From an uncultured Candidatus Saccharibacteria bacterium (GTDB lineage: Bacteria > Patescibacteriota > Minisyncoccia > Portnoybacterales > UBA2143), in assembly GCA_964517275.1 (NCBI GenBank), contig CAZFBL010000001.1, positions 14,144 to 78,143 on the forward strand: DNA of 64,000 nucleotides, in the 5' to 3' direction. Numbering within the stretch: position 1 is the stretch's first letter; each line of letters opens with the position of its first letter. Made by a program: the position numbers and the translations under genes. Under the pieces are notes generated by a model. The model had not been told where the DNA came from and made no database searches. It saw only the letters and a list, made by a program, of their open reading frames with translations. Positions 20,501 through 41,554 of this stretch are shown here, one piece after another.

Positions 20501-20950
20501 TTCAATGTATTCATTATCCAGAGTGGCGTAAGATTGAGAAAAATCCGCCCAACGAGCAACTCGGTTAAAGGTTTTGTACCAATCGTTAATACATTGAAAA
20601 ACCGACTGACGACAGGCCTGATTAAATTTCTTAATCCCAAATTTCTCAATCTCTTTTTTGCTTTTCAAGCCCAATTTCTGTTCAATCATATTTTCAACCG
20701 GCAAACCATGGCAATCCCAGCCAACCCGCCAGCCAATACGATGGCCTTTCATCGCCCAATAACGCAAGACCGTATCTTTAATCGTCCCGGCTAGAATATT
20801 GCCGTAATGAGGCAAACCGGAGGCAAAAGGCGGTCCATCATAAAAACTAAAAAAGGGCTTCTTCTGGCGAAGCTTAATCGATTTGGCAAAAATGTCCTCT
20901 TTTTGCCAAAACTTCAATATTTTCTTCTCTATTTTAGGAATCGGATTCAT
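17513..20950 (-). CDS. ileS: Isoleucyl-tRNA synthetase (type 2) carrying an inserted histidine-phosphatase (PGAM-like) domain
   Basis: PPFASGLPHYGNILAG (HIGH variant HYGN). KLSKRLKNYP (KMSKS). 1145 aa. An insert of about 185 aa sits between PIPIW-QCSKCG and HRPFVD, with RHGQT...SSDFFRTRQTA...LIVGHGGP. Confidence 0.9.
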   Translation of the reverse strand: MNPIPKIEKKILKFWQKEDIFAKSIKLRQKKPFFSFYDGPPFASGLPHYGNILAGTIKDTVLRYWAMKGHRIGWRVGWDCHGLPVENMIEQKLGLKSKKEIEKFGIKKFNQACRQSVFQCINDWYKTFNRVARWADFSQSYATLDNEYIESVWWVLKQLWEQGLVYQDFRVTPYCPRCGTPLSNFELNQPGAYQEVEDESVYIKFPLKGQPDTFLFVWTTTPWTLAANTAVAVGPDFKYLKVKFNNQYYILAKERLDVLTKAGKCEVVEELFGRDLVGLEYQPLYPMKLDKPGYRIVPADFVSVEDGTGLVHIAPTFGEEDMELGQKEDLPGLITVDEEGKVIKGLKIPGEGKFVKKADQDIKADLKKRDLLFKAEKIKHAYPFCWRCESPLLYYPINSWYVAVTKFKKELVANNQKIRWVPGHLKKGRFGKWLEGARDWSISRNRYWGTPIPIWQCSKCGRTEVIGGLDELAQKAKRNNYYILRHGQTKFNIDYQIYTDTENRKMPLTGKGENEIRSLVPELKKAKIDLIFSSDFFRTRQTASIIGQALGIKVIQDRRLRDIEMGKFKGRPLKEYFAYFQNDNLKRFEQAPPGGENLSQVKKRMMSFLLATDKKYRNKNILIVGHGGPLWILKGASRGLSNEEIANNREKELVQVGQLSSLKFKKLPFDDQGNLNLHRPFVDQIEIPCSCGGTMKRTSEVFDCWFESGSMPYGQWHYPFQNKELVEKTFPADFIAEGIDQTRGWFYTLHVLASALTLKNLGLGKNQPAFKNVIVNGLVLGEDGKKLSKRLKNYPAPEAIFDKYGADAIRYYLLTGTPMGEDYIVSEKRIAETFRRTIMTFYNSFTFLDTYTDGECLAPKSVKPKNALDRWIISLFNTLNQEMVKWMDKYELTKAARLLDDFLEDFSNWYVRRSRRLFQRPINLSEKKEAQKVYSFVLLKLVKLAAPFLPFLTEEIYQHLEKGSSVHLADYPKSDKKLIDKKLEAKMSELRQIAAVGLAQRAKAGLKVRQPLEKLTISSKPIATDKGMANLLAEEVNVKEVVFGKEIKLDTKISPKLRAEGIVRDLIRFVQGMRKDGGLKPGDKIYLRYSTSPSLRKLVQKNESVIRAEVSANRIEATTKRKETFLVEKEVKLDGQKIWLGIRKR

Positions 20951-23600: not shown

Positions 23601-23936
23601 GGGGGCGCTAGGCCTCGATGGGAAGTAATTTCAAAATAGGCAAGCCAAGCGGAATCTTGTTAACTTTCATAAAACAATTGCCAACTTAAAAGTTGCTCCT
23701 GCTTACGCTTAAGTAAGCAGCATCTGCTTGATTGACTCTCGATAGATAAAGCAGGTGTCATTGATCGAGATAGACAGAGCTTGAGTTAGGCAGCTCTGTT
23801 CGAAGATTACTAACTAGAGATAAGAGGATTTTGTCTTTTTTAGACCGATTATCTCAAATCTTCCAAAAAAGACTAAACTTGTAGAATATTTTGAGAGAAC
23901 TTTCTAGACGGGAGTTCGACTCTCCCCGCCTCCACC
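23601..23936 (+). ncRNA. ssrA: tmRNA (SsrA), standard non-permuted form
   Basis: 5' GGGGGCG...CUCGAUGGG. 3' GGGAGTTCGACTCTCCC T-arm plus CGCCTCCACC acceptor with a G3:U wobble. Internal ORF GCC AAC TTA AAA GTT GCT CCT GCT TAC GCT TAA (tag ANLKVAPAYA), with the stop in a GCTTAC/GTAAGC hairpin loop. Lies immediately downstream of smpB. Confidence 0.8.
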
Positions 23937-25127: not shown

Positions 25128-25661
25128 CTAATGCCAAAAAGCGGACCAGAGTTCATCAAGAATACTATTCTGACTAATCCGGGCGATTGATTCCATTTCC
25201 TCTTTTTCGGCCAAGGCCAGTCCTCGAGCTGCGCAGAGAACCACCGCTTCGTCAACCAATTCTCCCTGTGTAGAATCTTCAAGAAAAATACTGCTTTTAA
25301 AAGAAAAAATCAGCCCCTTGCGCAGCTTAACAGCTCCACCAGCCCAAACAACATATTTTCGCTTTTGCCAGCTGCTAACCAAATTCCGATGATAAGCAAG
25401 AATCCAACCATTACGTTTCGCTAAAGTACGTAGGAATTCAACATCGCCCCCTCCCGAAATAAAATTAGCTAGCTGACCGAAGACAGCCGATAGAGTTTTG
25501 ACATATAGCCCGGGTTGATCGCCTACCATTTCCCAAAGAACAAAACAACCAACTTGTGGTCTGGAAATTGCTTTAATCTTTTCCAAACTAAACAGAGCTT
25601 CAAAAACCTCCCAAGTCCTAGACAAAATTTCAATCCTAAAATCGTCGTTTATCGGCTCCAT
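25128..25661 (-). CDS. Hypothetical protein (177 aa)
   Basis: ORF only. No motif recognised. Confidence 0.4.
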   Translation of the reverse strand: MEPINDDFRIEILSRTWEVFEALFSLEKIKAISRPQVGCFVLWEMVGDQPGLYVKTLSAVFGQLANFISGGGDVEFLRTLAKRNGWILAYHRNLVSSWQKRKYVVWAGGAVKLRKGLIFSFKSSIFLEDSTQGELVDEAVVLCAARGLALAEKEEMESIARISQNSILDELWSAFWH

Positions 25662-25758: not shown

Positions 25759-26691
25759 TTAAATCTCGGCCACCAATAAATCCAAGGCTGTTGGACCATC
25801 CAAGCGGCCTTTTTTTATAGCCAAATCAATTTCCAGCAAGCGTTGGTAGATTCTCTTCAGCTGGTCCAAGCTGAAATTTTGAAGGACTGACCAGTTTTTT
25901 TTAACTGCATAGGGATGAAGACCGCTTTTTTTAGCCAAAGTATGGTAGGGCGTTCCCCGGCTGATTAAATCCTTAAGTTTAAGCAAACCGCGCAGTTGAT
26001 AAATAAACATGGTTAGTAAATAGATTTCGTTTTCACCTTGATTTAAATGTTCGTGCAAAAGCTTCAAGGCCGTTTTTTTATCTCGTTGAGCCAGAGCATC
26101 CAAGGTTTTGAAAATATTAACCTCTATCTTGGGTCCAACCAACAAATCGATATCTTCTTCATTAATCGGCTGGCCGGCTCTATAGCTAGCCAGTTTGTTA
26201 AGCTGGTTATTAATCTGCCAAAGGTCGTTGTCCGAATAAGAAACTAGTTTTTTAAGAGCGTCTAGACTAATAGCTATCTTCTGTCTAGCTGCTTCTTTTT
26301 TCAGCCAATTAACCAAATATGCTCCGCTTAATGGTTTAAACTCTTCAAACATAGTCAGCCAGGATTTAAAAGGAGTGATGGCTAACTTGCCTTCTTGATG
26401 AATAACTAAAATGATATCCTGATTTTGTTTTAGTTTATTCTTCTTAACGTATTCAGAAAATTCCCCTAAGAAACTTTTGTTCTCAAAAATGTTTTCCAAA
26501 ATAATTAATTTCTTCTCATCGAACATAGAAACCGACTCCACTTTTTCTTTGACTTGAGAAAAATCCAAATCTTCTTCGCGGAAGCGAACCAAATTTAGGC
26601 CAGTTCTGTGCTTAGTCTGGTATTGTCCGATAATTTCTTTTAATTTTTGCCGCGAGCGATAACTATCCTCGCCGTAGAGAAGAATGAGCAT
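25759..26691 (-). CDS. holA: DNA polymerase III delta subunit
   Basis: MLILLYGEDSYRSRQKLKEI... is a typical HolA N-terminus. The ORF track extends to 26889, but that extension overlaps the intergenic palindromic element. Confidence 0.6.
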   Translation of the reverse strand: MLILLYGEDSYRSRQKLKEIIGQYQTKHRTGLNLVRFREEDLDFSQVKEKVESVSMFDEKKLIILENIFENKSFLGEFSEYVKKNKLKQNQDIILVIHQEGKLAITPFKSWLTMFEEFKPLSGAYLVNWLKKEAARQKIAISLDALKKLVSYSDNDLWQINNQLNKLASYRAGQPINEEDIDLLVGPKIEVNIFKTLDALAQRDKKTALKLLHEHLNQGENEIYLLTMFIYQLRGLLKLKDLISRGTPYHTLAKKSGLHPYAVKKNWSVLQNFSLDQLKRIYQRLLEIDLAIKKGRLDGPTALDLLVAEI

Positions 26692-26706
26692 AAAAAAGTT
26701 AGTGAA

Positions 26707-26877
26707 GAGGATTGTCCTAACCATTTCGAGAAACCTAGATGACAAAAGCGGCAGCCATTTGTGGCTAAGAAATGGGGCGAGCTTTTGGCATCTCGGAGCC
26801 GCCACAACAATATAGATAGAAAACAAATTAATTAACGGTGGCGGCGTTTTCGAAAAATGGTTAGGACAATCCCTAGA
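26707..26877. repeat. Palindromic intergenic element of about 170 bp with 18-22-bp terminal inverted repeats (GGATTGTCCTAACCATTT) and a nested GCCGCCAC/GTGGCGGC hairpin
   Basis: Left arm 26709-26730 pairs with right arm 26851-26872. CTAG at both ends. Confidence 0.5.
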
Positions 26878-26879
26878 AA

Positions 26880-27908
26880 CTATCGCCAAGTTACATCTTG
26901 GTAAGGCTCAACCATTTCTATCCAAATTTGGCCGGGAATAAAGGGTATTTCCTGACCCGCTTCATCCAAAAATTTAAGTTTGCTGGCCGGATTCTTCTCG
27001 CTTTTTTGCCAAGTACCATCAATGACTATTCCATTTTGATAAATTTGACAATCGCCTGTTCCCTCTAAATCCAAATCATTATAGTCTGGCCCTTCAATCT
27101 GTTTAGAAACCACCCGCATAACAACCACATTTTTAGCGGCAATCTGCTGGTTATTATCTTTATCTATTTCTTTTAAATTAGTCCGGTAACGCAGATAGGA
27201 ATTGGTCGCTGGTTCATACTGATAGGATACGTTATACGGATAAGAATAGCCAATTCTTAAAACCCGACGATTAGCCTCTTGGCTTTCACCTTGGCCGTGC
27301 GGATAACCCTCAAATTTATTTTCTAAACGATAGCCTAATTTTTGAGCACTGTTTAATAGCCGCTCCATCGAAGTAAAGCCGTTATGCGGCTGAGGAATGC
27401 TTTGTTTCTGATAAAAGGCGTTGTAGGGGTTTTTAAGAGCGTCAATGTTGTCCATCATTCCAGTGTCCAATTTGTCCAAGGCGAAATGAGAACCGCCCCA
27501 ATGGACTAAAATGGCGTCTAAGCCAAGGGCTAAAGGGATAAAATCATGACGGGCGCTGCGCAAAGAACCGATTTCGGTCGGCTCCTGACAAACGTAAAGA
27601 GCAACCATCCGGGTAATGCTGTTGGTAATAACCGGCATTTCCAAAACCAAATCAGCTTGGGAAAGACCGGCCAACGGCCGGGTAACAGGGTCTTCGGCCA
27701 AAACAACGGCTAGCGGCCGCCGTTGATAGTTTTGGCAGACTAAACCTGACAGCGGACTGCTCCCGTTCAGCTCTCCCTGATTTACCGAACTGGCCGGCTG
27801 ACCGCCTATTTCAACGGTCCGGCTGGCTCGCTGCCAAATAAAAATTAGCCCGAAGGCTAAAATAAGAAAAATGAAAAATAACCAACCTCTTTTTCTTAAC
27901 TTAAACAT
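26880..27908 (-). CDS. DUF3048 domain protein (YerB-like), N-terminal TM/signal anchor
   Basis: RPLAVVLAEDPVTRPLAGLSQADLVLEMPVITNSITRMVALY matches the DUF3048 core. Confidence 0.6.
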   Translation of the reverse strand: MFKLRKRGWLFFIFLILAFGLIFIWQRASRTVEIGGQPASSVNQGELNGSSPLSGLVCQNYQRRPLAVVLAEDPVTRPLAGLSQADLVLEMPVITNSITRMVALYVCQEPTEIGSLRSARHDFIPLALGLDAILVHWGGSHFALDKLDTGMMDNIDALKNPYNAFYQKQSIPQPHNGFTSMERLLNSAQKLGYRLENKFEGYPHGQGESQEANRRVLRIGYSYPYNVSYQYEPATNSYLRYRTNLKEIDKDNNQQIAAKNVVVMRVVSKQIEGPDYNDLDLEGTGDCQIYQNGIVIDGTWQKSEKNPASKLKFLDEAGQEIPFIPGQIWIEMVEPYQDVTWR

Positions 27909-27916
27909 ATTAATTA

Positions 27917-28303
27917 CTAGCCGCTTCCTAAAATTTTCTTGATTTTGCTTATAATCTCATCGGGGGTGAAATGAGCCTTGATTAAATAATCAACCGCTCC
28001 TAACTTTAATCCTTTTTCCACTTCTTCCTGTTGACCCAGATTACTCAAAATAATCACTGGGATTTTGCTAATCTGATTGTCGTTCTTGATCTGCTTGAGT
28101 ATCTCAAAACCATCAATGCCAGGCAGGATTAAATCTAAGAGAATCAGTTGCGGCTGTTCTTTTTTAATCATCGCCAAGGCCTTCCCTCCGTCCGGAGCAA
28201 TTGAGATAATAAAGCCTTCGCCCTTCAATTTACGAATAAGCAACTCTCGAAGGAATTTATCATCCTCAACAATGAGGATTTTGATTTCCTTTGGGTCAGT
28301 CAT
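27917..28303 (-). CDS. Single-domain response regulator (CheY-like receiver)
   Basis: ILIVEDDKFLRELL...LILLDLILPGIDGFEIL...KLGAVDYLIK. Confidence 0.85.
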   Translation of the reverse strand: MTDPKEIKILIVEDDKFLRELLIRKLKGEGFIISIAPDGGKALAMIKKEQPQLILLDLILPGIDGFEILKQIKNDNQISKIPVIILSNLGQQEEVEKGLKLGAVDYLIKAHFTPDEIISKIKKILGSG

Positions 28304-28404
28304 AATAAACTAATATCAGCTTATGTTTCAATTTACCGGTTTAAACTAACGAAGCGCCCAAAAAATAATTTTATCAAATCTTCCCTCTTTTTTCAAGAAT
28401 AGCC

Positions 28405-28779
28405 TTATTTGGACTGTCCCAGTTGCTTCTTAACTTTAACAACTACTTCTTCCGGATCGAAGTCAGTCTTGACCAAACAGTCTTTAACACCTAATTCTTT
28501 GGCTCGGTCCAGTTCAACCGGTTGGCCTGAGTTAGAAATGATAATAATCGGAATTTTTTTCAGTTCCTCATCCTGGTTAATTTTTTCTATCACCTCGAAG
28601 CCGCCCATCTTAGGCATAACAATATCCAGTAAAATCAAATCTGGTTTGTTGTCTTTTATCTTTTCTAATCCCTCCTGACCGTTTTCGGCTGTCTCCACTT
28701 GATAGCCTTCTCTGGTTAATTTTTTTTGAAGAAGCCCGAGCAGAATTTCTTCATCTTCGACGATAATAATTTTTTTCAT
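28405..28779 (-). CDS. Single-domain response regulator (CheY-like receiver)
   Basis: KKIIIVEDEEIL...DLILLDIVMPKMGGFEVIE...AKELGVKDCLVK. Confidence 0.85.
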   Translation of the reverse strand: MKKIIIVEDEEILLGLLQKKLTREGYQVETAENGQEGLEKIKDNKPDLILLDIVMPKMGGFEVIEKINQDEELKKIPIIIISNSGQPVELDRAKELGVKDCLVKTDFDPEEVVVKVKKQLGQSK

Positions 28780-28794
28780 ATTTTTAAAATTATT

Positions 28795-30294
28795 TCAATC
28801 TATCGGCAAGCTGAACCAAAAGGTAGTCCCTTGTCCTTCTTTACTCTCAAACCAAATTTCTCCGCCGTGCGCTTCGACAATATTTTTACAAATAAACAGA
28901 CCTAAACCGGTCCCTTCTGTCTCCAGCTTTATTGCGTTATCAGCTCTGAAAAATTTAGCAAAAATCCTTTTCTGTTGAGAATTAGGAATGCCAATTCCAC
29001 TATCCTTAACCATCACCTTTAAATTAATTTTATCACATTCAACAGAAATTGTCACCTGTCCGCCGGATTCACTGAAACTAATCGCGTTATCCAACAGGTT
29101 CTGAACGACCAAACTTATTTTTTCCTTATCAATTTTAACCTTGGGCAAAAATTTCTTCGGTTTTTTAAAAACGAGCTTAAGATTCTTTTTTTTAACTGCT
29201 TCGCTTACTCCTTCAATAATATTTTCAATAATTTTCTCTATCGATTGAGGAACCGGATTATAGACAAAACGACCTTCTTCAATACGAGCCACGTTTAGAA
29301 GGTCATTAATTAGATTAATCATCCTTTCATTGCTCTGATAGCCTTTTCCCAAAAAAGCAAGCTGTTCCTGATTAAGTTTCCCGACATCGCCGTCTAAAAG
29401 CATCCGCAGAGTCCATTTAATAGCCGATAAAGGAGTTCTTAACTGATGAGCGGCAATAGAAACGAATTCCGTCTTCATTCTATCAATTTCCCTTTGTCTG
29501 GTTATATCATGCAGGATAATCATTGAACCGAAAGTCTCTTTGCCAACCACAACCGGAGCGACGGAAAACTGAAAAAATCTTTTAAGCGGTTTCTCAAGAA
29601 CTAGTTCATGCTTTCGGCCGGTCCATTTTATTTCTCCTCCCAAAACTTGATAGAGCTTTTTAAGATTAGAAAGGCCGGCTAGTTGGCTAATCTTTTTGTT
29701 AATAACCTGTTCCTCTTTCAACCTCAAAACCTTTTCCGCTTCCGGATTGACCAAAGTAATTCTTTCGGCCTGGTCAAAAACAATCAAACCATCGGTCAGA
29801 CTGGTCAACATTGCCCTGGTTTTATTCTTTTCTGCCTCAACCTCTTTAGTCCTTTCTATTACTTTTTCCTCCAAATTTTCCTGGAACTTCTTAATCTCGG
29901 TAATATTAGAGATAGCCCAGAAACAACCGATTAAGGTTCCTTGATAGTCTCTTCTAACCGAGACCGAAACACTGACCGGAATCTTTTTCTTGGCCCGAGT
30001 CGATAAAACCATTTCCTGATTTTCGGCCGTCTTGCTTTTAAAAACCTTTTTAAGGAGTTTTTTCGCTGATTCTTTGTCTTCGAAGACGAATTCGATTCCC
30101 TGGCCGATTACCTCTGTTTCATTATAGCCAGTCAGCTTTTTAGCCGCTTGATTAAGGTCAACAATAACCCCGGTCGGATTGACAGTGCAAACGGCCAAGG
30201 GCAAAAAAAAGGAAAATTCTTCAATATATCTCTCCAAATTTTCCAAATCTTCTTTAAGTTGTTGACACAGAAAATGTTCTTCCTTTTTTTTCAT
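28795..30294 (-). CDS. Sensor histidine kinase with PAS domains (cytoplasmic, no TM)
   Basis: H-box FVSIAAHQLRTPLSAI. HATPase N/G boxes DSGIGIP...GTGLGLFICKNIVEAHGGEIW. Two PAS-like segments. Confidence 0.85.
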   Translation of the reverse strand: MKKKEEHFLCQQLKEDLENLERYIEEFSFFLPLAVCTVNPTGVIVDLNQAAKKLTGYNETEVIGQGIEFVFEDKESAKKLLKKVFKSKTAENQEMVLSTRAKKKIPVSVSVSVRRDYQGTLIGCFWAISNITEIKKFQENLEEKVIERTKEVEAEKNKTRAMLTSLTDGLIVFDQAERITLVNPEAEKVLRLKEEQVINKKISQLAGLSNLKKLYQVLGGEIKWTGRKHELVLEKPLKRFFQFSVAPVVVGKETFGSMIILHDITRQREIDRMKTEFVSIAAHQLRTPLSAIKWTLRMLLDGDVGKLNQEQLAFLGKGYQSNERMINLINDLLNVARIEEGRFVYNPVPQSIEKIIENIIEGVSEAVKKKNLKLVFKKPKKFLPKVKIDKEKISLVVQNLLDNAISFSESGGQVTISVECDKINLKVMVKDSGIGIPNSQQKRIFAKFFRADNAIKLETEGTGLGLFICKNIVEAHGGEIWFESKEGQGTTFWFSLPID

Positions 30295-30298
30295 TTAG

Positions 30299-30898
30299 CT
30301 ATTCCCATTCAATAACGAATTCGTGGTAGGGGTCGCCCCGGAAAACGCATTTAGTCTCTTTAATAGTCATTTTATCGGTTTTGACCGCCAGCAAGGCAAC
30401 TGATTTAAAGTATCCTCTGAAATACTGGCAGAGAATCGGATGAACCTTAAAATCTTTGAGTCGGAGGACTAATCGTTTCGTATCAACATTAACTTCCGGC
30501 GCCTCCAGTTGGCCAATCGAATAATGCTCCCTCCAATATTTGGCACTCTCATTGAAGGTCTTATCCAAGGAGACAAAGTATCTTAAAAGAGCCCTGACAA
30601 TAAAAGAATGCTTGGGAGCGGCGTAGCCCATTTCCAATATTTCCTTCTCGCCCCAGCCAAAAGTCTCTTTGATGATTAATAATGAAATGGCTCGCCAGCT
30701 CAAAGGATACCAACCAGTTGCTCTGATTTCCTTACCATAACTGATCGGCTGGCCGGTTTTTTTAATAGCCGCTTCAACTTTTTTAAGCCCGGCTTGCCCC
30801 TTTTTTTCCAAAATATACTGGGCGTCAGTCTGAAAAACGACTCCTCTGGCTTGTCCTTTTACTTTTAGTATTTTGTCAATTTCATTCTTGGTTAGCAT
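30299..30898 (-). CDS. V4R-like ligand-binding domain protein (paralogue 2)
   Basis: C-terminal HPILCQYFRGYF...ETKCVFRGDPYHEFVIEWE resembles the V4R core (C..G.....EteC...GDpyCeF). 3' end identical at nucleotide level to the neighbour. Confidence 0.5.
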   Translation of the reverse strand: MLTKNEIDKILKVKGQARGVVFQTDAQYILEKKGQAGLKKVEAAIKKTGQPISYGKEIRATGWYPLSWRAISLLIIKETFGWGEKEILEMGYAAPKHSFIVRALLRYFVSLDKTFNESAKYWREHYSIGQLEAPEVNVDTKRLVLRLKDFKVHPILCQYFRGYFKSVALLAVKTDKMTIKETKCVFRGDPYHEFVIEWE

Positions 30899-30928
30899 AT
30901 TTCTCGATTTGCTATTTATAACTTCAAC

Positions 30929-31555
30929 TTATTGATACCTATAGACATAGACGAATTCGTGGTAGGGGTCGCCCCGGAAAACGCATTTAGTTTCCTCGGC
31001 TCTAACTACTTTCGCCCCAACAATCATCTCAATAAGTTTGGAAAAGACTCCGAGAAGATAAGGACAGACAACCGGATGTTTTTTAAAATCTTCCAGTCTG
31101 ACGACAATCAGTTTTTTCTTCTCGTCATATTTATTAATCTTAACCCGACCAAAGGTATAGAATTTTCTCCAACTATCTGCTCCCATCTTAAGGGTCGTCT
31201 CGACTGACATAAAATATCTCAAGAATCTTTTTATTCCCAAATGGGAATAGACTACCGACTGACCCATTTTCATAATCTCTTCTTCCCGCCAGTTAAAACA
31301 TTTAGCGCTGGCCAGCATAAAGATGGTTGGCCAACTGCTCGGAATCCAATCCATATCCTTTATCTTAGACAGGTCCGGCAATTCGTAGCCACATCTTTTC
31401 AGTTCGGCTTTTACTTTCTTAAATCCATCCTCCCCTTTTTCTCGTCTTACATAGCTGACTAGAAACTTTATGTCATTCCCTCTTTCTTTGCCCGTATCAT
31501 CCTTTTGTATCTCTTTGATCGCTTTTTTCAAATCTATTTTATCTAAATCCAACAT
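30929..31555 (-). CDS. V4R-like ligand-binding domain protein (paralogue 1)
   Basis: HPVVCPYLLGVF...ETKCVFRGDPYHEFVYVYRYQ. Tandem paralogue of 30299..30898. Confidence 0.5.
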   Translation of the reverse strand: MLDLDKIDLKKAIKEIQKDDTGKERGNDIKFLVSYVRREKGEDGFKKVKAELKRCGYELPDLSKIKDMDWIPSSWPTIFMLASAKCFNWREEEIMKMGQSVVYSHLGIKRFLRYFMSVETTLKMGADSWRKFYTFGRVKINKYDEKKKLIVVRLEDFKKHPVVCPYLLGVFSKLIEMIVGAKVVRAEETKCVFRGDPYHEFVYVYRYQ

Positions 31556-31564
31556 ATATTTAGG

Positions 31565-32449
31565 CTATAACTCAAATAGTCTCTTGGCTAAACTATCAAA
31601 CTCTAATTTTCTTAAGAGTCTAGCCGCTTTCTCTTTATTATACCCTCCCCAGCCGGATTGGTCTAATTTAAAATCAAGAGGAACATCTTTTTTAACAGTC
31701 ACTAAATACTGACTGAAAAAAGCGTCTTTTTTGTATTCCAGCAATTTAGCTTTCAATTTGGGATTTAAATTGCTTTGAGGAAGATTTTTATAGAGTTCTT
31801 TTAAGCTGCCGAAGCGCTTAATTAAACCAGCCGCCGTCTTCTGGCCGATACCGACCACTCCCGGGACATTGTCCGAAGGATCTCCTTTCAACCCTTTAAA
31901 GTCGTTAATTTGTTTCACTTCCAGACCATAACGTTTTTTGACAGCCGCCTGGTCATAGACAGTCATCTCTTTAATGCCGGCTTGAGGAGTATAAACAAAA
32001 GTCAATCGGTCAACCAGCTGAAGAGCGTCTAAATCGCCGGTGATAATAATTTTCTTTATTTTCTTATGCTTGGTTTTTTGAACAATCGTCCCAATAATGT
32101 CATCGGCTTCAAAACCTTGTTTTTCATAAATGGGAATGCCCAAGGCTTTAATAATTTCCTTGATTAAGGGAATTTGGTCATATAATTCCTGAGACGGCTT
32201 AACCCGTTTGGCCTTATACTCCTTGTACTCAAGGTCGCGAAAAGTCGGCCCGGCCAGATCAAAAGCGGCGACCAGGTAATCCGGCTTCAAATCTTTAATA
32301 ACCTTGAAAAGAATGCTGACAAATCCGTAAACAGCGTTAACCAACCGACCTTTCTTGGTTTTTAGAGGCGGCAAGGCATGATAAGCCCGATGGATTAAAG
32401 CGTTACTGTCAATAAGAATTAGGGTTTTTATAGATAATCTTGCGCTCAT
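31565..32449 (-). CDS. 5'-3' exonuclease / flap endonuclease (Pol I N-terminal-domain-like)
   Basis: LILIDSNALIHRAYHAL...GFEADDIIGTI and a helix-hairpin-helix region. Overlaps the tsaE 3' end by 41 nt. Confidence 0.8.
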   Translation of the reverse strand: MSARLSIKTLILIDSNALIHRAYHALPPLKTKKGRLVNAVYGFVSILFKVIKDLKPDYLVAAFDLAGPTFRDLEYKEYKAKRVKPSQELYDQIPLIKEIIKALGIPIYEKQGFEADDIIGTIVQKTKHKKIKKIIITGDLDALQLVDRLTFVYTPQAGIKEMTVYDQAAVKKRYGLEVKQINDFKGLKGDPSDNVPGVVGIGQKTAAGLIKRFGSLKELYKNLPQSNLNPKLKAKLLEYKKDAFFSQYLVTVKKDVPLDFKLDQSGWGGYNKEKAARLLRKLEFDSLAKRLFEL

Positions 32450-32900
32450 CTTTAGTTAAGTATTCAAATTTAAACCAGCTAACCTTAGCTGGCAAAATCT
32501 TTTTTATCTTTTCAGCCCATTCAATAACTACCAAATTATTCGGTTGACCGATTATCTCCTTAAAACCCAAGTCGGCTAAATCATCAGCTGAACTAAGTCG
32601 GTAGCAATCAACGTGATAAAGATATTCGAAAAGGCCGGTCCGCTTTAACTCAAATTTTTTGAAAATAACGAAAGTCGGACTGGTTATTTTCTCCTTGATT
32701 CCTAACCCCCGGGCCAAGCCCCGGATAAAAGTGGTTTTACCGCCGCCTAACTCTCCCTCTAAAGCGATAACTAGAGCCTGTCTCTCTTTTGGTCGGCTTT
32801 TAATTATCTCTTCAGCTAAAATTCGGCCGGCTTGCTCTGTTTCTCGAGTATTTTTAGTAATGATTTCCGTCTTGTCTGTAATTTCCGAAGTTCCATTCAT
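32409..32900 (-). CDS. tsaE: tRNA t6A37 biosynthesis ATPase TsaE (YjeE)
   Basis: LEGELGGGKTTFIRGLARGLG Walker A. Length typical of TsaE. Confidence 0.8.
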   Translation of the reverse strand: MNGTSEITDKTEIITKNTRETEQAGRILAEEIIKSRPKERQALVIALEGELGGGKTTFIRGLARGLGIKEKITSPTFVIFKKFELKRTGLFEYLYHVDCYRLSSADDLADLGFKEIIGQPNNLVVIEWAEKIKKILPAKVSWFKFEYLTKDERKIIYKNPNSY

Positions 32901-32971: not shown

Positions 32972-34645
32972 ATGACTTCCCTTAATTCAAAAACAAAAAA
33001 GCAGGCTCTCCAAGAGAAATTAACCGAATTAAGAAAAGAAGCTGAAGAAAGAAAGGCCAAACAATTAGCCGTTAAGCTTAATTTACCCTATCTTGATTTA
33101 AAGATAACACCGATTGAATCAGAAGCTCTTAAGCTGCTCTCTGAAGAAAGAGCAAAAAAGGCGAAACTGGCGGCCATCAAAAAGCAAGACAAAAAAATCT
33201 GGCTGGCCAGCCAAGAACCCGATAACCAGTCAGCTAAAAAAATTATTGAAGAACTCAAGAAAGAAGGCTACCAGATCAATCTGATTCTCGTTTCAATGGC
33301 TAGTCTGATTAAAGCTTGGGCTGGCTACCAACGAATAGCTGAGCCAGCTAAAGAAATTACCGGCAAAGTGGAAATAGCCAGTCAGGTCCTGGAAAGATTG
33401 CAAGAAGAAATTAAAAACTTAGCTGATATTAAAAAAAGAGTTGAAGAGAAATCAGTCAGCCAAGCCTCAACTATTATCGAGCTCCTTTTAGCTGGCGGCC
33501 TACAAACTAATTCTTCCGACATCCATTTGGAAAGCGAAGCCGATAAGATTAATTTACGTTACCGTATCGACGGTCTTCTCCAGGATGTCGCTTTTTTATC
33601 TCCAAAAATCTATCACTTTGTTTTGAACAGGCTAAAACTGTTAGCCGGTCTCAAATTAAACGTCCATGATATCGCCCAAGACGGCCGTTTCACCATTTCG
33701 TTGGGCAAAATTGATATCGAAATCAGGGTTTCCTGTCTGCCAAGCGCTTACGGAGAAAATATTGTCATGAGAATTCTCAATCCGAAGTCAATTGATTTGG
33801 ACCTGGAAAAATTGGGTTTGCGTCCGGATTTATTAGAGGTCATTCAAAAAGAAATTAAAAAGCCCGATGGGATGATCATTACCACTGGGCCGACTGGCTC
33901 GGGAAAAACAACTCTCCTTTATTCTTTTATTAAGAAAGTTAACAAACCAGAGGTTAAAATAATTACTCTGGAAGACCCGATTGAATATCATCTGGAAGGA
34001 ATTAGTCAAACCCAAACTGAAAAAGAAAAAGGTTATACCTTTGCCAAGGGCCTACGGGCCATTTTAAGACAAGACCCCGATGTTATCCTAATCGGCGAAA
34101 TTAGAGATAAAGAAACAGCTCAAATTGCCGTTCAGGCCGCTTTGACTGGTCATCTAGTATTTTCCACTCTTCATACTAATGACGCGGCCGGAGCGATTCC
34201 CCGTTTCCTCGATTTAGGACTACAGGCTTCTAATTTAGCTGCCTCGCTCAATCTAATTATTGCTCAACGCCTAGTCAGAAGACTTTGCTCCCATTGCCGT
34301 CAAGCCGTCTCTCCCTCGACCGAACAACTGAATAAAATAAAAAAAGCCCTAAGCGGGCTACCAAAACAAATCAAGCATAAACCGATAAATAAAAAACTGG
34401 AAATCTATCAGGCTAAAGGCTGTAACCAATGCAATCAAACCGGCTATCGGGGCCGAATTGGTATTTTTGAAATAATCCCGATTAACCAAACAATGGAGAA
34501 AATAATCAAGCCGGGCGTCAGCCACGCCGAAATTTTGGAAAAATCTTTTCAGCAAAGTCTAGTCAGCTTCCGACAAGACGCCTTGCTTAAAGTTTTAGAA
34601 GGAGTAACCAGCCTGGAAGAAGCAGAAAGAGTACTCGGCGAATAA
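32972..34645 (+). CDS. pilB: Type IV pilus / type II secretion assembly ATPase (PilB/GspE family)
   Basis: Walker A TGPTGSGKTT. Asp/His boxes. Tetracysteine CSHC...CNQC. Confidence 0.85.
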   Translation: MTSLNSKTKKQALQEKLTELRKEAEERKAKQLAVKLNLPYLDLKITPIESEALKLLSEERAKKAKLAAIKKQDKKIWLASQEPDNQSAKKIIEELKKEGYQINLILVSMASLIKAWAGYQRIAEPAKEITGKVEIASQVLERLQEEIKNLADIKKRVEEKSVSQASTIIELLLAGGLQTNSSDIHLESEADKINLRYRIDGLLQDVAFLSPKIYHFVLNRLKLLAGLKLNVHDIAQDGRFTISLGKIDIEIRVSCLPSAYGENIVMRILNPKSIDLDLEKLGLRPDLLEVIQKEIKKPDGMIITTGPTGSGKTTLLYSFIKKVNKPEVKIITLEDPIEYHLEGISQTQTEKEKGYTFAKGLRAILRQDPDVILIGEIRDKETAQIAVQAALTGHLVFSTLHTNDAAGAIPRFLDLGLQASNLAASLNLIIAQRLVRRLCSHCRQAVSPSTEQLNKIKKALSGLPKQIKHKPINKKLEIYQAKGCNQCNQTGYRGRIGIFEIIPINQTMEKIIKPGVSHAEILEKSFQQSLVSFRQDALLKVLEGVTSLEEAERVLGE

Positions 34646-34701
34646 GACTTTTCGGCTGACGGTTTTTTAAGCAAACATTATCTGGATAAACCTTTAATAT
34701 C

Positions 34702-34857
34702 AACTAACCTGTAGGCAATGACTCTCAGCCTGAGAACAGAGAGAAAAGGCTTTTCCGAGGAATATCCCAGTCGGAACCAAGATATCCTAAAGACTAAGAT
34801 AAAACCCCTATCGGACCCTATTTAAAAAATTGAGCCCTTATTGCCTACAGATTAGTT
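34702..34857. repeat. Inverted-repeat-flanked intergenic element (18-bp IR AACTAACCTGTAGGCAAT / ATTGCCTACAGATTAGTT, 17/18) enclosing about 120 bp
   Basis: Lies in the 279-bp pilB-ruvB spacer. Internal small palindromes CTCAGCCTGAG and GAAAAGGCTTTTCC. Confidence 0.45.
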
Positions 34858-34924
34858 AATATTAAAAAGGGACGACTTAATTGTCCTTCCTAACTATTAA
34901 GTATAATAGCAAACTATCGTCAAA

Positions 34925-35944
34925 ATGTCAAGACCGACAACCACTGCTAACCAATTAAAAGAAGATCGTTATCTGGATTTAACCCTCCGACCGGGTTCTT
35001 TTGAAGAATATATGGGCCAGCAAAAAATTAAGGATAATCTTAAAATTTTAATGGAGGCGGCCCAAAAGAGAAAAGAGCCGATTGAACATGTTCTCCTCTA
35101 CGGCGGCTCCGGCTTAGGTAAAACCACTTTAGCACATATTATCGCCAGAGAAATGAATTGCCAAATTAAGGTAACCTCCGGACCAGCCATCGAAAAAGTA
35201 GGTGACTTAGCTTCTATTTTGACCAATTTAGCTGATGGCGATGTTCTTTTCGTTGACGAATGCCACCGTTTGAACAAATCTATCGAGGAAGTTCTTTACC
35301 CAGCCATGGAAGATTTCCTTCTGGATATTATTATTGGCAAAGGACCGTCGGCCCGAACCCTCCGCTTGGAACTGCCACGTTTTACCTTAATTGCCGCGAC
35401 CACCCGGATTGGTCTCCTTTCTTCGCCTCTGCGGAGCCGCTTTGGGATAAATTTTCGCTTGGACTTCTACGACCCAAAAGACATTGAAAAAATTATCGCC
35501 CGGTCGGCTAAAATTCTAAAGACGTCCATTGAGCCGGCCGCTCTCCAAATGATTGCTCAATCGGCCCGCTATACGCCCCGGATAGCCAACCGCTTGCTTA
35601 AAAGAATTCGCGATTACGCCCAAGTCCGAGCGGACGGACTAATTAACCAAAAAACAGCCCGAGAAGGACTGAAAATGTTGGAAGTTGACGAAATCGGCTT
35701 AGAACCGGCTGACCGCCACATTTTAGAAACAATGATTAAAAAATTTAACGGCGGTCCGGTCGGACTGCAGGCTTTAGCGGCGGCCACTAACGAAGAGCAG
35801 GATACAATTGAAGAAATTTACGAACCCTACCTGCTTCGTTTAGGTTTTTTAGCACGTACCCCGAAAGGCCGTCAAGCAACCGAATTAGCTTATGAGCACC
35901 TAGGTATAAAATATGAAGGAGGGGATCAAGATAAATTGTTTTAG
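34925..35944 (+). CDS. ruvB: Holliday junction branch-migration helicase RuvB
   Basis: RPGSFEEYMGQQKIKDNL...LLYGGSGLGKTTLAHIIA. Walker B DVLFVDECHRL. Confidence 0.9.
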   Translation: MSRPTTTANQLKEDRYLDLTLRPGSFEEYMGQQKIKDNLKILMEAAQKRKEPIEHVLLYGGSGLGKTTLAHIIAREMNCQIKVTSGPAIEKVGDLASILTNLADGDVLFVDECHRLNKSIEEVLYPAMEDFLLDIIIGKGPSARTLRLELPRFTLIAATTRIGLLSSPLRSRFGINFRLDFYDPKDIEKIIARSAKILKTSIEPAALQMIAQSARYTPRIANRLLKRIRDYAQVRADGLINQKTAREGLKMLEVDEIGLEPADRHILETMIKKFNGGPVGLQALAAATNEEQDTIEEIYEPYLLRLGFLARTPKGRQATELAYEHLGIKYEGGDQDKLF

Positions 35945-37529
35945 CTTTAAAATTATCCTCTGTTTGTTAATCATCGGAGGGTTTTTTGTTTGGCCATTTT
36001 TTTGTTTTGGAGCAGCTAATGAGGTAGTTATTAATGAAATTGCCTGGATGGGAACAATTGAATCAACTAATGACGAATGGATTGAATTAAAAAACAATAC
36101 TGACCAAGAAATTGGTTTGACTGACTGGACTTTAAAAGCGGTTGATGGCAGTCCAGAGATATCCTTGACCGGCGTTATCCCCGCTCAAGGATATTTTTTA
36201 TTGGAAAGAACTGATGATAATTCTGTGTCTGAATTGGCGGCTGACCAGATTTATACAGGCGCCTTAGGCAATACAGGGGAAAGTTTAGAGCTAGGCGATG
36301 GAGAAAATAATCTAATTGATTCAATTGATTGCTCTGAAGGTTGGTTAGCTGGCGATAACGAAACCAAGCAAACCATGGAAAGAATAGATACTGACTGGCA
36401 AACTAGTTTGGGTATTGGCGGCACGCCAAAGACCCGAAACAGCAGCGGCCAAGGAGTCCCAGCCGAAGAACCGCCACTCGGAGGGTCAAGCCAAAAACCG
36501 GAAGCCGAGCGACAAATTCCGCCAACCACAGTTAATCAGCCGCCAGTCGCCCAAGCCGGTCCGGATCTGACCGCCTTAACCAACCGGGAAATATTTTTTG
36601 ACGCTTCCCAATCTTGCGACCCGAATAATGATTCTCTCAGCTATTTCTGGAACTTTGGTGACGGAGCAACCGCCACTGAAGCCAAGACCAGTCACGCCTA
36701 CTCTTATCCCGGCCAATATATAGTCAGCTTAATAGTCAATGATGGTGAATTTTCCGACTTCAATATTATAACTGTCAATATTTATAGCTCCTCGGTCATC
36801 ATTAGTGAATTTCTGCCTAATCCGGTTGGTTCGGACGAAGAAAGCGAATGGATTGAATTATTTAACCAAAGCAACCAGATAGCCAATCTGACTGACTGGC
36901 AATTAGATGACCAATTTGAAGGAAGCCATCCTTTTATTTTTCCGGCCAACAGCCTAATCAGCCCGAGACAATTTCTGCTTATCTTACGGCCAGTCAGTAA
37001 AATAGCTCTCGATAATGACTGCGACCAGGTTCGGTTTTTTTATCCGAATGGCTCCCTGGCCAGCGAAATCAGCTACCAAGGACAGACTGAAGAGGGCTCG
37101 GCTATTGCATTTGACGGTCGGGACTATTTTTGGACGAGGCAGCCAACTCCGGGAGCGGCCAACATTATCTCTGCGATCAGTTTAATAGATAAAAGCGAAA
37201 ATCTCTCGGCTAATAATCCTCAATCGATTATCCAAGGAAGCCAAGAACCACCAGAAATTTTAGTTCAAACTGATGCTGGTCGAAATCAGTCAACTTCAGC
37301 CCTTGATCAGCCAAGTCAAACCGAAGCCTCTCAATCGAACCAATCAATCAAGACAACAACTCATTCAACGGAAAAAAGCAAACTGGTATCTAAACAGGCA
37401 GCCGATTTAGGCCAATCAAGCAGGACAGCCGGACAAGCCAGCTTAATCTCGACCCTTTCCATTATTATCTCTGCTTCCCTGTTGGCCAGCTGGTTATTAA
37501 TTCGACTAAACATACTAAAAACTCATTGA
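35913..37529 (+). CDS. Surface protein with two lamin-tail domains (LTD) flanking a PKD-like domain, N-terminal signal peptide and C-terminal TM anchor
   Basis: VINEIAWMGTIESTNDEWIELKN and IISEFLPNPVGSDEESEWIELFN (LTD). FWNFGDGATATEAKTSHAYSYPGQYIVSLIVNDG (PKD). Overlaps the ruvB end by 32 nt. Confidence 0.7.
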   Translation: MKEGIKINCFSFKIILCLLIIGGFFVWPFFCFGAANEVVINEIAWMGTIESTNDEWIELKNNTDQEIGLTDWTLKAVDGSPEISLTGVIPAQGYFLLERTDDNSVSELAADQIYTGALGNTGESLELGDGENNLIDSIDCSEGWLAGDNETKQTMERIDTDWQTSLGIGGTPKTRNSSGQGVPAEEPPLGGSSQKPEAERQIPPTTVNQPPVAQAGPDLTALTNREIFFDASQSCDPNNDSLSYFWNFGDGATATEAKTSHAYSYPGQYIVSLIVNDGEFSDFNIITVNIYSSSVIISEFLPNPVGSDEESEWIELFNQSNQIANLTDWQLDDQFEGSHPFIFPANSLISPRQFLLILRPVSKIALDNDCDQVRFFYPNGSLASEISYQGQTEEGSAIAFDGRDYFWTRQPTPGAANIISAISLIDKSENLSANNPQSIIQGSQEPPEILVQTDAGRNQSTSALDQPSQTEASQSNQSIKTTTHSTEKSKLVSKQAADLGQSSRTAGQASLISTLSIIISASLLASWLLIRLNILKTH

Positions 37530-38583: not shown

Positions 38584-39246
38584 ATGTTTTCTATCATAGA
38601 ATATATGGTCAACCAGGGTGTCCCCCAAGAGACGATCGTTCTCCTTTTAATGCTGCCTGTGGTCGCAACCATCATTGCTTTTGCCCGACAAGTCATCGGC
38701 ATTAGAGGCTTTGGCATCTATACACCTTTGATTATCTCATTGGCTTTCTTGGCCACTGGCTTAAAATACGGTCTGGTTCTTTTTGTGACTGTCTTGCTAG
38801 TCGGGACATTGACTCGCCTTCTGGTCAAACGGTCCCGCCTTCTTTATTTGCCCCGGATGGCCATTGTCTTAACCGCCGTCGCCCTGGGTATCTTTTTACT
38901 CCTCCTGGCTGGCGCTTACGCTGACCGCCGAGGTTTAATTGCCGTCTCTATTTTCGCCATTTTGATTATGGGCACCTTAGTTGAGAAATTCATCGCTGTC
39001 CAAATTGAACGCGGGGCTCGGGGAGCAATTATCTTGACTTCGGAAACTTTGATTCTTTCAATTATCTGTTATTGGGTAGCTAGCTGGTCTTGGCTGCAAA
39101 GCCAAGCTCTCGTTTACCCAATCTGGTTTATCTTAGGAGCGATTGTCATCAACATCCTTTTAGGTAGATGGACCGGTCTCCGACTGTCCGAATATTGGCG
39201 TTTCCGGGAAGTGATTAAACGGGTTGAACTGCCCGAGAAAAAATAA
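38584..39246 (+). CDS. Polytopic membrane protein (about 6-7 helices) leading the ATP-grasp cluster
   Basis: 220 aa, strongly hydrophobic. Starts 5 nt after the ruvC stop and is followed 9 nt later by the ATP-grasp gene. Confidence 0.55.
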   Translation: MFSIIEYMVNQGVPQETIVLLLMLPVVATIIAFARQVIGIRGFGIYTPLIISLAFLATGLKYGLVLFVTVLLVGTLTRLLVKRSRLLYLPRMAIVLTAVALGIFLLLLAGAYADRRGLIAVSIFAILIMGTLVEKFIAVQIERGARGAIILTSETLILSIICYWVASWSWLQSQALVYPIWFILGAIVINILLGRWTGLRLSEYWRFREVIKRVELPEKK

Positions 39247-39254
39247 GCTCGGTT

Positions 39255-40607: not shown

Positions 40608-41554
40608 CAAAAAAGGATAAAAATACAGAAATTATTCTCGAAGAAGCAAAGAAACTCGGTCTGAAAGCAAAAATTATTTACCCGAAACGACAGCTCATCG
40701 AGCTAACCAAGGGCTCAGGGAAATTTTTAATTCAAGGAAATTTCAGAATTAATCTAAGCCGATTCGGCACAAAGAATATTCCTCTTTTTAAGGATCTATC
40801 CTATTTTTTCTGGCAAAAGAATAATATCCCTATTCCTAAAACAATCACCGCTTTTTCTTTTCAAGAGGCAAAAAGAAAAATGAAAAAGATTTCTTTTCCT
40901 TTAGTCATCAAAGACGCCCGAGCCAGCCAAAGTAGAAATCTCTGGGTGAATATTCCTGACTTAGCAAAGGCCTCCTCCGTTTTAAAAAAACTGTTCCTGG
41001 ATTATCTAATTGAAGCGGTTATTATTCAAGAATTCGTCCGAGGCGAAGAATTTCGAATTTTAACTCTCAAAAATAGAATCTTAGGCATAGCCCAGCTGAT
41101 TCCTCCTTTTTTAATCGGCAACGGTCAGGCAACTATAAAAAGTTTAATTAAGGAATTAGAAAGAAAAAGAAAGTGTCAGATCATTATTGACCAAGAAATT
41201 AAAGTTTTGATTAAAAAACAGGGATTCTCCTTAAACTCCATTTTGCCAATTAACCAAAAATTACTTTTAAGAGAATACTCAAAAATCAGCCAGGGCGGAC
41301 AGGTTAAAAATTTCTCATTGAATAACATCCATCCAGAAACAGAAAAATTGTGCCTGAAGGCAGTTAAAGTGACTGGTTTAGAATTAGCCGGGCTAGATAT
41401 TATAGCCGAAGATCTGACTAAATCACCAAAAGAACAAAAAATAAAATTTATAGAGATTAATGGTCGACCGGATATCTATATCCATCATTATCCCCATGAA
41501 GGAAAGCCGGTTAACGTAACTAGAGAAATATTAAAATATATCTTCAAGTTATGA
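40604..41554 (+). CDS. ATP-grasp ligase paralogue 2
   Basis: FPLVIKDARASQSRNLWV, EFVRGEEFRILT, GLELAGLDIIA, FIEINGRPDI. Start overlaps the upstream stop (ATGA). Confidence 0.6.
   Translation: MTKKDKNTEIILEEAKKLGLKAKIIYPKRQLIELTKGSGKFLIQGNFRINLSRFGTKNIPLFKDLSYFFWQKNNIPIPKTITAFSFQEAKRKMKKISFPLVIKDARASQSRNLWVNIPDLAKASSVLKKLFLDYLIEAVIIQEFVRGEEFRILTLKNRILGIAQLIPPFLIGNGQATIKSLIKELERKRKCQIIIDQEIKVLIKKQGFSLNSILPINQKLLLREYSKISQGGQVKNFSLNNIHPETEKLCLKAVKVTGLELAGLDIIAEDLTKSPKEQKIKFIEINGRPDIYIHHYPHEGKPVNVTREILKYIFKL

Follow-up and report, generated by a model that had tools for sequence, protein, structure and literature searches.

In V. cholerae, a heme-free H-NOX controls the histidine kinase HnoK via a zinc-Cys site, and in the H-NOX of S. 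oneidensis the metal site is formed by C139, H161, C164, and C172 (PMC7108781). The proximal heme-ligating His of H-NOX proteins, which is located on helix alpha-F, has been reported to be absolutely conserved (PMC7108781). In DmpR, the zinc ligands are C151, E172, C177, and C185 (PMC7264223), and MetOD1, an output domain found in response regulators of methanogens, is described as combining an HNOB-like secondary structure with the Cys cluster of V4R domains (Galperin et al. 2018, PMC5847659).

Two paralogues that share features with all of these systems, here called parA and parB, are encoded in a 64-kb stretch of DNA (the window) in a run of six minus-strand ORFs. The run is composed as the original prediction had listed it, and ORFs and Pfam domains bear out the two paralogues, the soluble PAS-PAS-HisKA-HATPase kinase, and the two receivers. 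The gene parA (30929..31555) encodes a stand-alone protein of 208 aa with an H-NOX fold and a V4R-type metal site, and parB (30299..30898) encodes its ancient paralogue of 199 aa (37% aa identity, E 1e-45). The kinase (28795-30294) contains two PAS domains, HisKA (E 1e-16) and HATPase_c (E 5e-33) according to Pfam. Its residues 1-150 (29845..30294, Pfam PAS at 31-133) constitute a module termed PAS1, while the second PAS, HisKA (273-341) and HATPase_c (389-498) are found in residues 151-499 (28795..29844), and a search for a transmembrane segment in the kinase found none, in agreement with its predicted cytoplasmic location. The receivers RR1 (28405..28779, 124 aa, Response_reg E 7e-27) and RR2 (27917..28303, 128 aa, E 2.5e-26) consist of a single domain each, with the phospho-acceptors Asp52 and Asp57 readable in the respective sequences; Pfam detects no further domain in either of them, as expected for receivers that lack an output domain. 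A co-directional gene of a DUF3048 protein (26880..27908), which has an N-terminal membrane anchor and the N- and C-terminal DUF3048 domains of Pfam, adjoins the receivers. Promoter and terminator scans gave no more hits than shuffled sequences (24 vs 16.6+-4.4 and 12 vs 9.2+-3.8, respectively).

Fold and metal site of parA and parB

The AF2 model of the fold is confident (pLDDT 91, pTM 0.87), and its best structural match is H-NOX. In the model, not only the C-terminus but the whole protein of 200 aa is H-NOX-like, with the distal helical subdomain and the proximal alpha/beta subdomain of the H-NOX architecture present over the full length. There is also structural similarity to solved V4R domains, and it had been proposed that the C-termini resemble V4R domains in which the last Cys is replaced by His. 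This holds for the metal-ligand pattern, C164-x23-E188-x2-C191-x7-H199 in parA, which is the Cys...Glu...Cys-x7-Cys zinc-ligand pattern of V4R proteins such as DmpR, PoxR, and MopR with a His as the final ligand (Cys157, Glu181, Cys184, and His192 in parB), but the V4R profile PF02830 scores only 15.5 bits with parA and 16.3 bits with parB, the Pfam gathering threshold being 31, the match covers just profile positions 21-61 of 62, and the two-subdomain fold with its best match to H-NOX extends well beyond a V4R-like C-terminus. At the level of the family, 30 of the 40 members give a V4R hit with E <= 0.1, the best being 1.7e-6. Among 40 diverse members, the two Cys (C164, C191) never vary, E188 and H199 each occur in at least 90%, and the spacing of the ligands, C-x23-E-x2-C-x7-H, matches that of the S. 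oneidensis H-NOX and is close to that of DmpR. From this conservation, binding of a metal by a Cys2-Glu-His site can be predicted. The family itself, which comprises about 240 to 840 clusters of public sequences, is unannotated: NCBIfam has no family for parA or parB, and neither parA nor the family profile retrieved anything relevant from the PDB sequences.

With H-NOX as top match over the full length, and with an operon logic like that of H-NOX, including kinase or c-di-GMP-type partners, parA and parB could be true gas sensors that detect NO or O2 through a bound heme, as functional H-NOX proteins do. This is nevertheless highly improbable. The Pfam profile HNOB (PF07700) does not match parA or parB at E <= 1 and finds a single one of the 40 family members (E 0.035), and an hhalign comparison of the family profile with the Tt H-NOX gave no signal (probability 0.15%), which is why the mapping of heme residues relies on the order of secondary structures and on the zinc-Cys as an anchor. 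In this register, which is not a residue-level superposition, residues 100-135, which include the helix equivalent to the proximal one (106-132), contain no conserved His; parA His104 is present in some members only, and H199 of the metal site is the sole His that is conserved in at least 90% of the members in the 40-member alignment. The YxSxR motif, which we take to lie in H-NOX on the strand before the zinc-Cys, is absent as well: with C164 manually equated to C139 of the S. oneidensis H-NOX, this strand reads F157-K-K-H160-P. Judged by this manual register, parA and parB are without the heme ligands of H-NOX. The family thus bridges heme-binding H-NOX proteins and V4R domains, as it has the architecture of the former and the metal site common to both, without heme ligands, and it bears on the evolution of gas sensors from, or into, sensors of metals or small molecules.

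Coupling to a PAS module and signal output

A sensor gene directly upstream of a gene whose product starts with PAS1 is seen in 36 genomes, mostly of Patescibacteria, the loci having been picked for containing the sensor. Of 35 informative loci, 29 have such a gene right after the sensor gene or genes. In most loci this partner is a kinase, in about 10 it is an ORF with PAS1 only, in two loci (L004, L017) a PAS3-HD_5 protein of the HD-GYP type, and in one (L021) a hybrid kinase. A sensor gene precedes 33 of 34 PAS1 modules vs 1 of 10 kinases that have no PAS1. The coupling is thus independent of the attached output, and it is found across several phyla; a signalling neighbour is absent at six loci, among them both archaeal ones. 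The two ancient paralogues often occur together, and there are two natural cases of a tandem sensor-sensor fusion, one of which (P0018) gave only a low-confidence model when a dimer interface was sought (2-sequence alignment, pLDDT 48.8, pTM 0.33). The conserved coupling to PAS1 suggests that the sensor acts in trans on the PAS module, in the manner of H-NOX with HnoK: H-NOX genes lie next to that of a histidine kinase or a c-di-GMP enzyme, the neighbour here is a kinase, a hybrid kinase, an HD_5 protein, or a PAS-only protein, and regulation is proposed by analogy. Judged from gene adjacency, PAS1 would be the docking or receiver module for the sensors. From the strict pairing with a single PAS module, one would expect the interface between sensor and PAS to be portable and possibly reusable.

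It can be argued that the proteins are adaptors, scaffolds, or enzymes, since the fold superfamily also includes proteins that are not sensors, such as TRAPP Bet3, BcsD, YslB, ATC hydrolase, and BchJ. In that case, parA and parB might stabilise proteins that contain PAS domains, determine where these are located, or modify a small molecule. However, the best structural matches, also the longest ones, are the genuine sensors H-NOX, DmpR, and PoxR, the tight and output-independent coupling to one PAS module fits an accessory sensor such as H-NOX, and no metabolic genes are conserved near the sensor loci, so that a non-sensor role is regarded as unlikely.

As sensors, parA and parB would be cytoplasmic stand-alone proteins that respond either to a small hydrophobic ligand in a pocket between the subdomains or to a change in redox state or metal at the Cys2-Glu-His site. 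The signal would be conveyed in trans to PAS1 at the N-terminus of the soluble kinase, thereby altering kinase autophosphorylation and in consequence the phosphorylation of both receivers, which, being single-domain proteins, would act through protein-protein contact; the overall logic would be that of H-NOX regulating HnoK. The two sensors may work as a pair, but an obligate parA/parB heterodimer is unlikely, because parA is deleted in the closest relative (L038). A simple redox-switch analogy is weakened as well: in the V. cholerae H-NOX, the disulfide that is described as the first to form links the equivalents of C191 and H199, and with only two Cys in the metal site this disulfide is impossible in parA and parB.

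The original prediction had assumed a phosphorelay. An Hpt domain was found neither in the kinase nor in the receivers or neighbouring ORFs, and the 64-kb window contains no additional kinases or receivers; with no Hpt and no second His-Asp step, the system is a plain two-component system, consisting of a HisKA-class kinase and receivers. RR1 and RR2 are conserved together in related loci, and in L003 a single REC-REC protein takes the place of the pair. The DUF3048 protein, which had been described as lipoprotein-like and counted as part of the system, does have a hydrophobic segment at residues 8-26, but no Cys follows it and hence there is no lipobox; among the related loci, its gene is found in two only (L002, L010), and Fpg/MutM is the usual occupant of that position. 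The suggested link to a pilus or T4SS had its sole basis in a PilB-like ATPase gene, and as this gene belongs to a conserved housekeeping backbone (ruvB, tsaE, exonuclease, holA), such a link is not specifically supported. Lacking specific conservation, both the DUF3048 protein and the PilB-like ATPase were rejected as functional parts.

CPR bacteria (Patescibacteria) have tiny genomes and very few regulators. In many of their lineages the sensor-kinase-receiver module keeps the same place in the genome, and it therefore offers a concrete handle on what these bacteria sense; a complete genome of 0.65 Mb (L019) keeps the system. Among the papers that could be searched, none ties V4R or H-NOX-like sensors to CPR/Patescibacteria, and the sensor-kinase arrangement, which is conserved across CPR bacteria, has apparently not been described before. 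A far-reaching and rather doubtful idea is that it represents the main conserved signalling system of CPR bacteria of the Paceibacteria type, with a heme-free sensor of H-NOX fold that would detect a redox, oxidant, gas, or host-derived signal by its Cys2-Glu-His metal centre or by its pocket. The sensor-PAS unit would then be a cassette that has been joined in evolution to kinases, to HD-GYP enzymes, or to nothing at all, and the receiver-only pair would control host attachment or pilus behaviour.

An identical run in the two paralogues

Near their 3' ends, parA and parB share the sequence ACTAAATGCGTTTTCCGGGGCGACCCCTACCACGAATTCGT (coding strand), a run of exactly 41 nt that occurs in only two copies in the window, both on the minus strand. 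The copy in parA (30951..30991) encodes T189 to F201 and the first two bases of V202, and the copy in parB (30315..30355) T182 to F194 and two bases of V195. The noted identity is confirmed, with the length being 41 nt and the first copy located at 30315-30355 instead of 30304-30350. The runs do not extend to the gene ends but stop 13 nt (30315-30355) and 19 nt (30951-30991) short of the stop codons. For parA, an assembly artefact is excluded by the same sequence in the independent metagenome contigs L037 (98.6% identical) and L057; for the parB copy, no independent assembly was found, and an exact-protein look-up gave no other contig.

The encoded peptide TKCVFRGDPYHEF is conserved throughout the family, which is why the nucleotide identity in this region is already about 70-78% in other genomes, and the run could be a coincidence of a strongly conserved peptide with a common codon preference. 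This is exceedingly unlikely: all 13 synonymous codons of the run are identical vs 21 of 53 in the remainder of both genes, the probability calculated from the codon usage of the window is 10^-4.7 (about 2e-5), none of 300 synonymous resamplings reached 41 nt (maximum 29), and divergent paralogue pairs in 12 other genomes have exact identities of at most 19 nt. Apparent exact runs of 41 and 26 nt in L022 were rejected, being artefacts that stem from ORF calls which overlap.

Selection for the nucleotide sequence itself, whether it forms an RNA structure, is targeted by an sRNA or antisense RNA, or is bound by a protein as DNA in both genes, could be invoked to explain why the GC3 of the run is 0.69 vs 0.45 for the genes and 0.42 for the window as a whole, with rarer C-ending codons and CGG, and the run does carry a small GGGG/CCCC stem. 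Yet the claimed hairpin (GGGG-CGA-CCCC) is not more stable than shuffled sequences (z = +0.38, -0.55, +0.72), Rfam has no match for the run, a third copy is missing in the window, and the synonymous sites vary freely across about 50 other orthologous and paralogous genes. The parB orthologue of L038, which is 89% identical, differs synonymously in 8 of the 13 codons. Such a constraint is therefore very unlikely, and of the two causes that had been considered, gene conversion or constraint, conversion is the better one.

The run is most likely a short, lineage-specific patch of gene conversion or template switching between direct-repeat paralogues that are 636 nt apart. The paralogues themselves separated long ago, with identities of 58% and 72% to their orthologues vs 33-41% to each other, and of the 45 nt of the motif segments, 13 differ between the two genes in L002. 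RecA-dependent recombination usually needs more homology than 41 nt between genes of about 52% nucleotide identity, and this speaks against conversion. No relative was found that keeps both genes unconverted, and an attempt to polarise the conversion failed, with L038 lacking parA and the comparison of parA and parB orthologues giving a mosaic picture. A signature of GC-biased conversion is not significant (6 AT-to-GC vs 2 GC-to-AT changes in the run, 32:35 elsewhere, Fisher P = 0.26). As the peptide encoded there was already the same in both genes, the conversion would have been neutral, and the run is without evident functional importance; it is a small and clean example of micro-conversion between old paralogues. 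Taken jointly, the sensor mechanism and the gene conversion are considered the best explanation of the locus, with fair confidence.

Comparison with known sensor systems

Like MetOD1, which is compared here by its description only, parA and parB are linked to two-component signalling, but MetOD1 is fused to a receiver as its output, has three conserved Cys, and belongs to methanogenic archaea. The stand-alone archaeal V4R protein MJ1460 (PDB 2oso) has 157 aa, of which 119 residues align, and it is devoid of the H-NOX-like N-terminal subdomain that parA and parB carry. In contrast to the V4R A domains of the sigma-54 activators XylR, DmpR, MopR, and PoxR, parA and parB stand alone with no AAA+ or DNA-binding output, their last ligand is a His, their N-terminal helical subdomain aligns with H-NOX and not with the DmpR N-terminus, and there are no aromatic-catabolism genes nearby.

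From H-NOX proteins, the family differs by the lack of detectable sequence similarity to HNOB, by the lack of a conserved proximal His and of YxSxR (in the manual register), and by Cys2-Glu-His ligands in place of Cys3-His/Gln. What defines its partner is a specific PAS module at the N-terminus, and the family occurs mainly in Patescibacteria and not in Proteobacteria, often with two paralogues together. Nonetheless, like in the H-NOX/HnoK systems of S. oneidensis and V. cholerae, the sensor gene adjoins that of a histidine kinase which is soluble and accompanied by several receivers, partners of the c-di-GMP type are found in other lineages (the HD_5 proteins of L004 and L017), and the metal site is at the place equivalent to that of the S. 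oneidensis H-NOX, with the spacing of C139, H161, C164, and C172.

Gene order between tsaE and holA

The ORF listing shows a tight co-directional gene run on the minus strand that leads from tsaE (32409-32900) and the gene of a 5'-3' exonuclease (31565-32449) through the tandem paralogues parA (30929-31555, 208 aa) and parB (30299-30898, 199 aa), here called sensors, to the genes of a kinase (28795-30294, 499 aa), of two single-domain receivers, RR1 (28405-28779, 124 aa) and RR2 (27917-28303, 128 aa), of a DUF3048 protein (26880-27908) and finally to holA (25759-26889). parA and parB are 37% identical. By Pfam, the kinase consists of two PAS domains, HisKA and HATPase_c, RR1 and RR2 of a receiver domain alone, and as no membrane segment was found in the kinase, the originally predicted combination of a soluble PAS-PAS-HisKA-HATPase kinase with two receiver-only proteins has been confirmed. 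No further kinases or receivers were found in the window. The DUF3048 protein has both DUF3048 domains (Pfam) and a hydrophobic anchor at the N-terminus, but no lipobox Cys, which is why the term lipoprotein-like does not apply, and its assignment to the signalling operon has to be given up as well: it is present in only two related loci, its position being usually held by an Fpg/MutM-type gene, and it is thus a neighbour and not a component. Downstream of holA, the same co-directional run includes a 177-aa ORF (25128-25661, minus) that has no Pfam or NCBIfam match.

Elsewhere in the window, a 1145-aa class-I aminoacyl-tRNA synthetase (17513-20950, minus; tRNA-synt_1 and Anticodon_1) carries an unusual His_Phos_1 histidine-phosphatase insert within its catalytic domain (residues 482-646, E 1e-32). 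A tmRNA with the tag peptide ANLKVAPAYA is found at 23601-23936 (plus) and a tRNA-Leu(CAA) at 3822-3908 (plus). Positions 38584-42411 (plus) encode a 7TM_transglut membrane protein, an ATPgrasp_ST (sugar-transfer-associated ATP-grasp) and two RimK-like ATP-grasp proteins. The segment 48001-52000 has a GC content of 0.305-0.337, compared with about 0.41 elsewhere, and may be foreign or an island.

An identical segment in parA and parB

Near their 3' ends, parA and parB share identical DNA of exactly 41 nt (30315-30355 and 30951-30991), the sole two copies in the window. The original prediction of an identical 3' segment was thus correct as such, but not its limits at 30304-30350 and 30951-30997. 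The run spans 13 codons (TKCVFRGDPYHEF), all of them synonymously identical, whereas only 21 of 53 comparable codons agree in the remainder of the two genes. With the codon usage of the window, such a run has a probability of 10^-4.7, and the longest shared run in 300 synonymous resamplings of both genes was 29 nt; an origin by chance is very unlikely. The same parA sequence is found on two independent metagenome contigs, L037 (98.6% identical) and L057, and the parA copy of the run is therefore not an assembly artefact. At 30932-30949, the 3' end of parA has a 6-nt tandem duplication (GTCTAT-GTCTAT) that adds a C-terminal 'VY' in comparison with L037.

Judged by sequence identity, which is 58% and 72% to their respective orthologues and 33-41% between the paralogues, parA and parB are old paralogues. 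In 12 other genomes, the longest exact runs shared by divergent paralogue pairs have only 9-19 nt, and in the L002 genome there are 13 differences over 45 nt between the two motif segments. Of the two options that had been considered for the segment, gene conversion and nucleotide-level constraint, a family-wide form of the latter is not supported, since the codons of the run vary freely in about 50 homologous genes, parB of the closest relative, L038 (89% identical), has 8 synonymous differences from the run, the GGGG/CCCC stem predicted as a hairpin does not exceed shuffled sequence in stability, and there is no Rfam match for the run. The best explanation is a short lineage-specific patch of gene conversion or template switching between the direct-repeat paralogues, which lie 636 nt apart. 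The homology flanking the run is low, and C-ending codons are in excess within it; a signature of GC-biased conversion is suggested there but falls short of significance (P = 0.26).

The putative sensor family and its metal-ligand pattern

Taken alone, sequence searches are of little help: in public sources, the family members are named only as hypothetical proteins, there is no NCBIfam family for parA and parB, and no sequence relative was found in the PDB. Nevertheless, this is a genuine and clearly delimited family: 17 relatives came from a word-indexed search, and an exhaustive profile search gave 842 clusters at E <= 1e-3 and 244 at E <= 1e-30. Apart from two tandem fusions, nearly all of them are stand-alone proteins with a length of about 200 aa. 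With regard to the predicted V4R domain, the two paralogues score only 15.5 and 16.3 bits at a Pfam cut-off of 31, but V4R is matched by 30 of 40 diverse family members (best E 1.7e-6), HNOB weakly by only one of the 40, and the metal-site pattern is of the V4R type. They are thus at best distant V4R members.

C164 and C191 occur in every one of these 40 members, E188 and H199 in at least 90% of them. The resulting ligand pattern C164-x23-E188-x2-C191-x7-H199 is spaced like known zinc sites, such as those of Shewanella oneidensis H-NOX (C139, H161, C164, C172; PMC7108781) and DmpR (C151, E172, C177, C185; PMC7264223). AlphaFold2, run on the family alignment, gave a confident model (pLDDT 91, pTM 0.87). 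True heme-based sensing is very improbable, as no His is conserved in the helix that corresponds to alpha-F, the strand equivalent to YxSxR reads F-K-K-H-P (manual register), and the family has no profile similarity to Tt H-NOX. parA and parB have the H-NOX fold and a metal site of the V4R type and lack the heme ligands, and therefore belong to the superfamily but are no strict H-NOX proteins.

Coupling to PAS1 and comparison with known systems

A genome scan for the sensor family gave 36 loci, one of them a complete 0.65-Mb genome, mostly from Patescibacteria (Paceibacteria, Nealsonbacteria, Portnoybacteria, Gribaldobacteria and others), with a few from WOR-3, Marinimicrobia, Margulisiibacteriota, Saganbacteria and a DHVE2 archaeon. 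The gene order is strongly conserved: tsaE, exonuclease, one to four sensor genes, kinase, two receivers, holA. Immediately after the sensor genes follows a protein that begins at its extreme N-terminus with PAS1, the PAS module of kinase residues 1-150. Its attached output is a kinase in most loci, but PAS1 also occurs as a free-standing ORF (about 10 places), in a PAS-PAS-PAS-HD_5 protein of the HD-GYP type (L004 and WOR-3 locus L017), and on a multi-PAS hybrid kinase (Marinimicrobia, L021). Within the sensor-containing loci, a sensor gene lies directly upstream of 33 of 34 PAS1 modules, and of only one of 10 kinases without PAS1. Some related loci encode a polytopic membrane protein, about 235-285 aa long, between kinase and first receiver (L006 10888-11742, L010 10234-11091, L026 10160-10864); this gene is missing from the window, and the only copy scanned, that of L010, has no Pfam family.

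A block of a PilB-like T2SSE ATPase (32972-34645), ruvB and a PKD/Lamin-tail-domain protein (together 32972-37529, plus) is divergent from tsaE and kept in about 16 Paceibacteria-type loci. As ruvB, tsaE, the exonuclease gene and holA are likewise conserved neighbours, the proximity of the ATPase, on which a pilus link had been based, is backbone synteny and not a specific sign of pilus control.

Two natural tandem fusions consist of two complete sensor modules, both of which carry a metal motif (P0018, 410 aa; P0019, 405 aa), a REC-REC fusion replaces the two receivers in L003 (10397-11233), and parA-type and parB-type copies have been anciently co-retained in L001, L002, L003 and L039-L041. 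This suggests that copies act in pairs, the fusions being Rosetta-stone hints that duplicated components act together. A heterodimer cannot be obligatory, however, because most loci have a single sensor gene and because L038, with about 84% nt identity from parB to the receiver, has lost about 600 nt comprising nearly all of parA (600-700 versus window 30901-31500) and retains only about 55 nt of its start (ORF 'MKLDLKEVIK*'); one of the two sensors is thus dispensable.

The analysis shows the fold of the sensors, their conserved set of metal ligands and their conserved gene coupling to PAS1. The sensor would bind a metal, probably zinc, and perceive either a small ligand in the inter-subdomain pocket or a change of redox state or metal at the Cys2-Glu-His site; it would then act in trans on PAS1 and modulate kinase autophosphorylation and thereby the phosphorylation state of both receivers, which would have to work through protein-protein contact. 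Such a trans-acting sensor is reasonably probable, and it is rather unlikely that parA and parB are a non-sensory adaptor or an enzyme.

In the literature searched, no account of such sensors was found for CPR bacteria. They offer a concrete, testable entry point into the signalling of these bacteria and link the heme and non-heme proteins of this fold in evolution, although the system logic is familiar and the identical run a curiosity. By their sequence and metal site, parA and parB come closest to the V4R domains of DmpR, PoxR and MopR, and the archaeal MetOD1, described as combining an HNOB-like secondary structure with the V4R Cys cluster (PMC5847659), is conceptually alike. The sequence and heme features that define H-NOX are lacking, and the score is below the Pfam cut-off for V4R. 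The partner spectrum of sensor and PAS1 is that known for H-NOX proteins, namely kinases and c-di-GMP-type enzymes (PMC7108781). We file the system as an accessory H-NOX/V4R-superfamily sensor for a two-component system, which by analogy would in its function most resemble H-NOX/HnoK, and especially the heme-independent zinc-Cys mode of Vibrio cholerae H-NOX.
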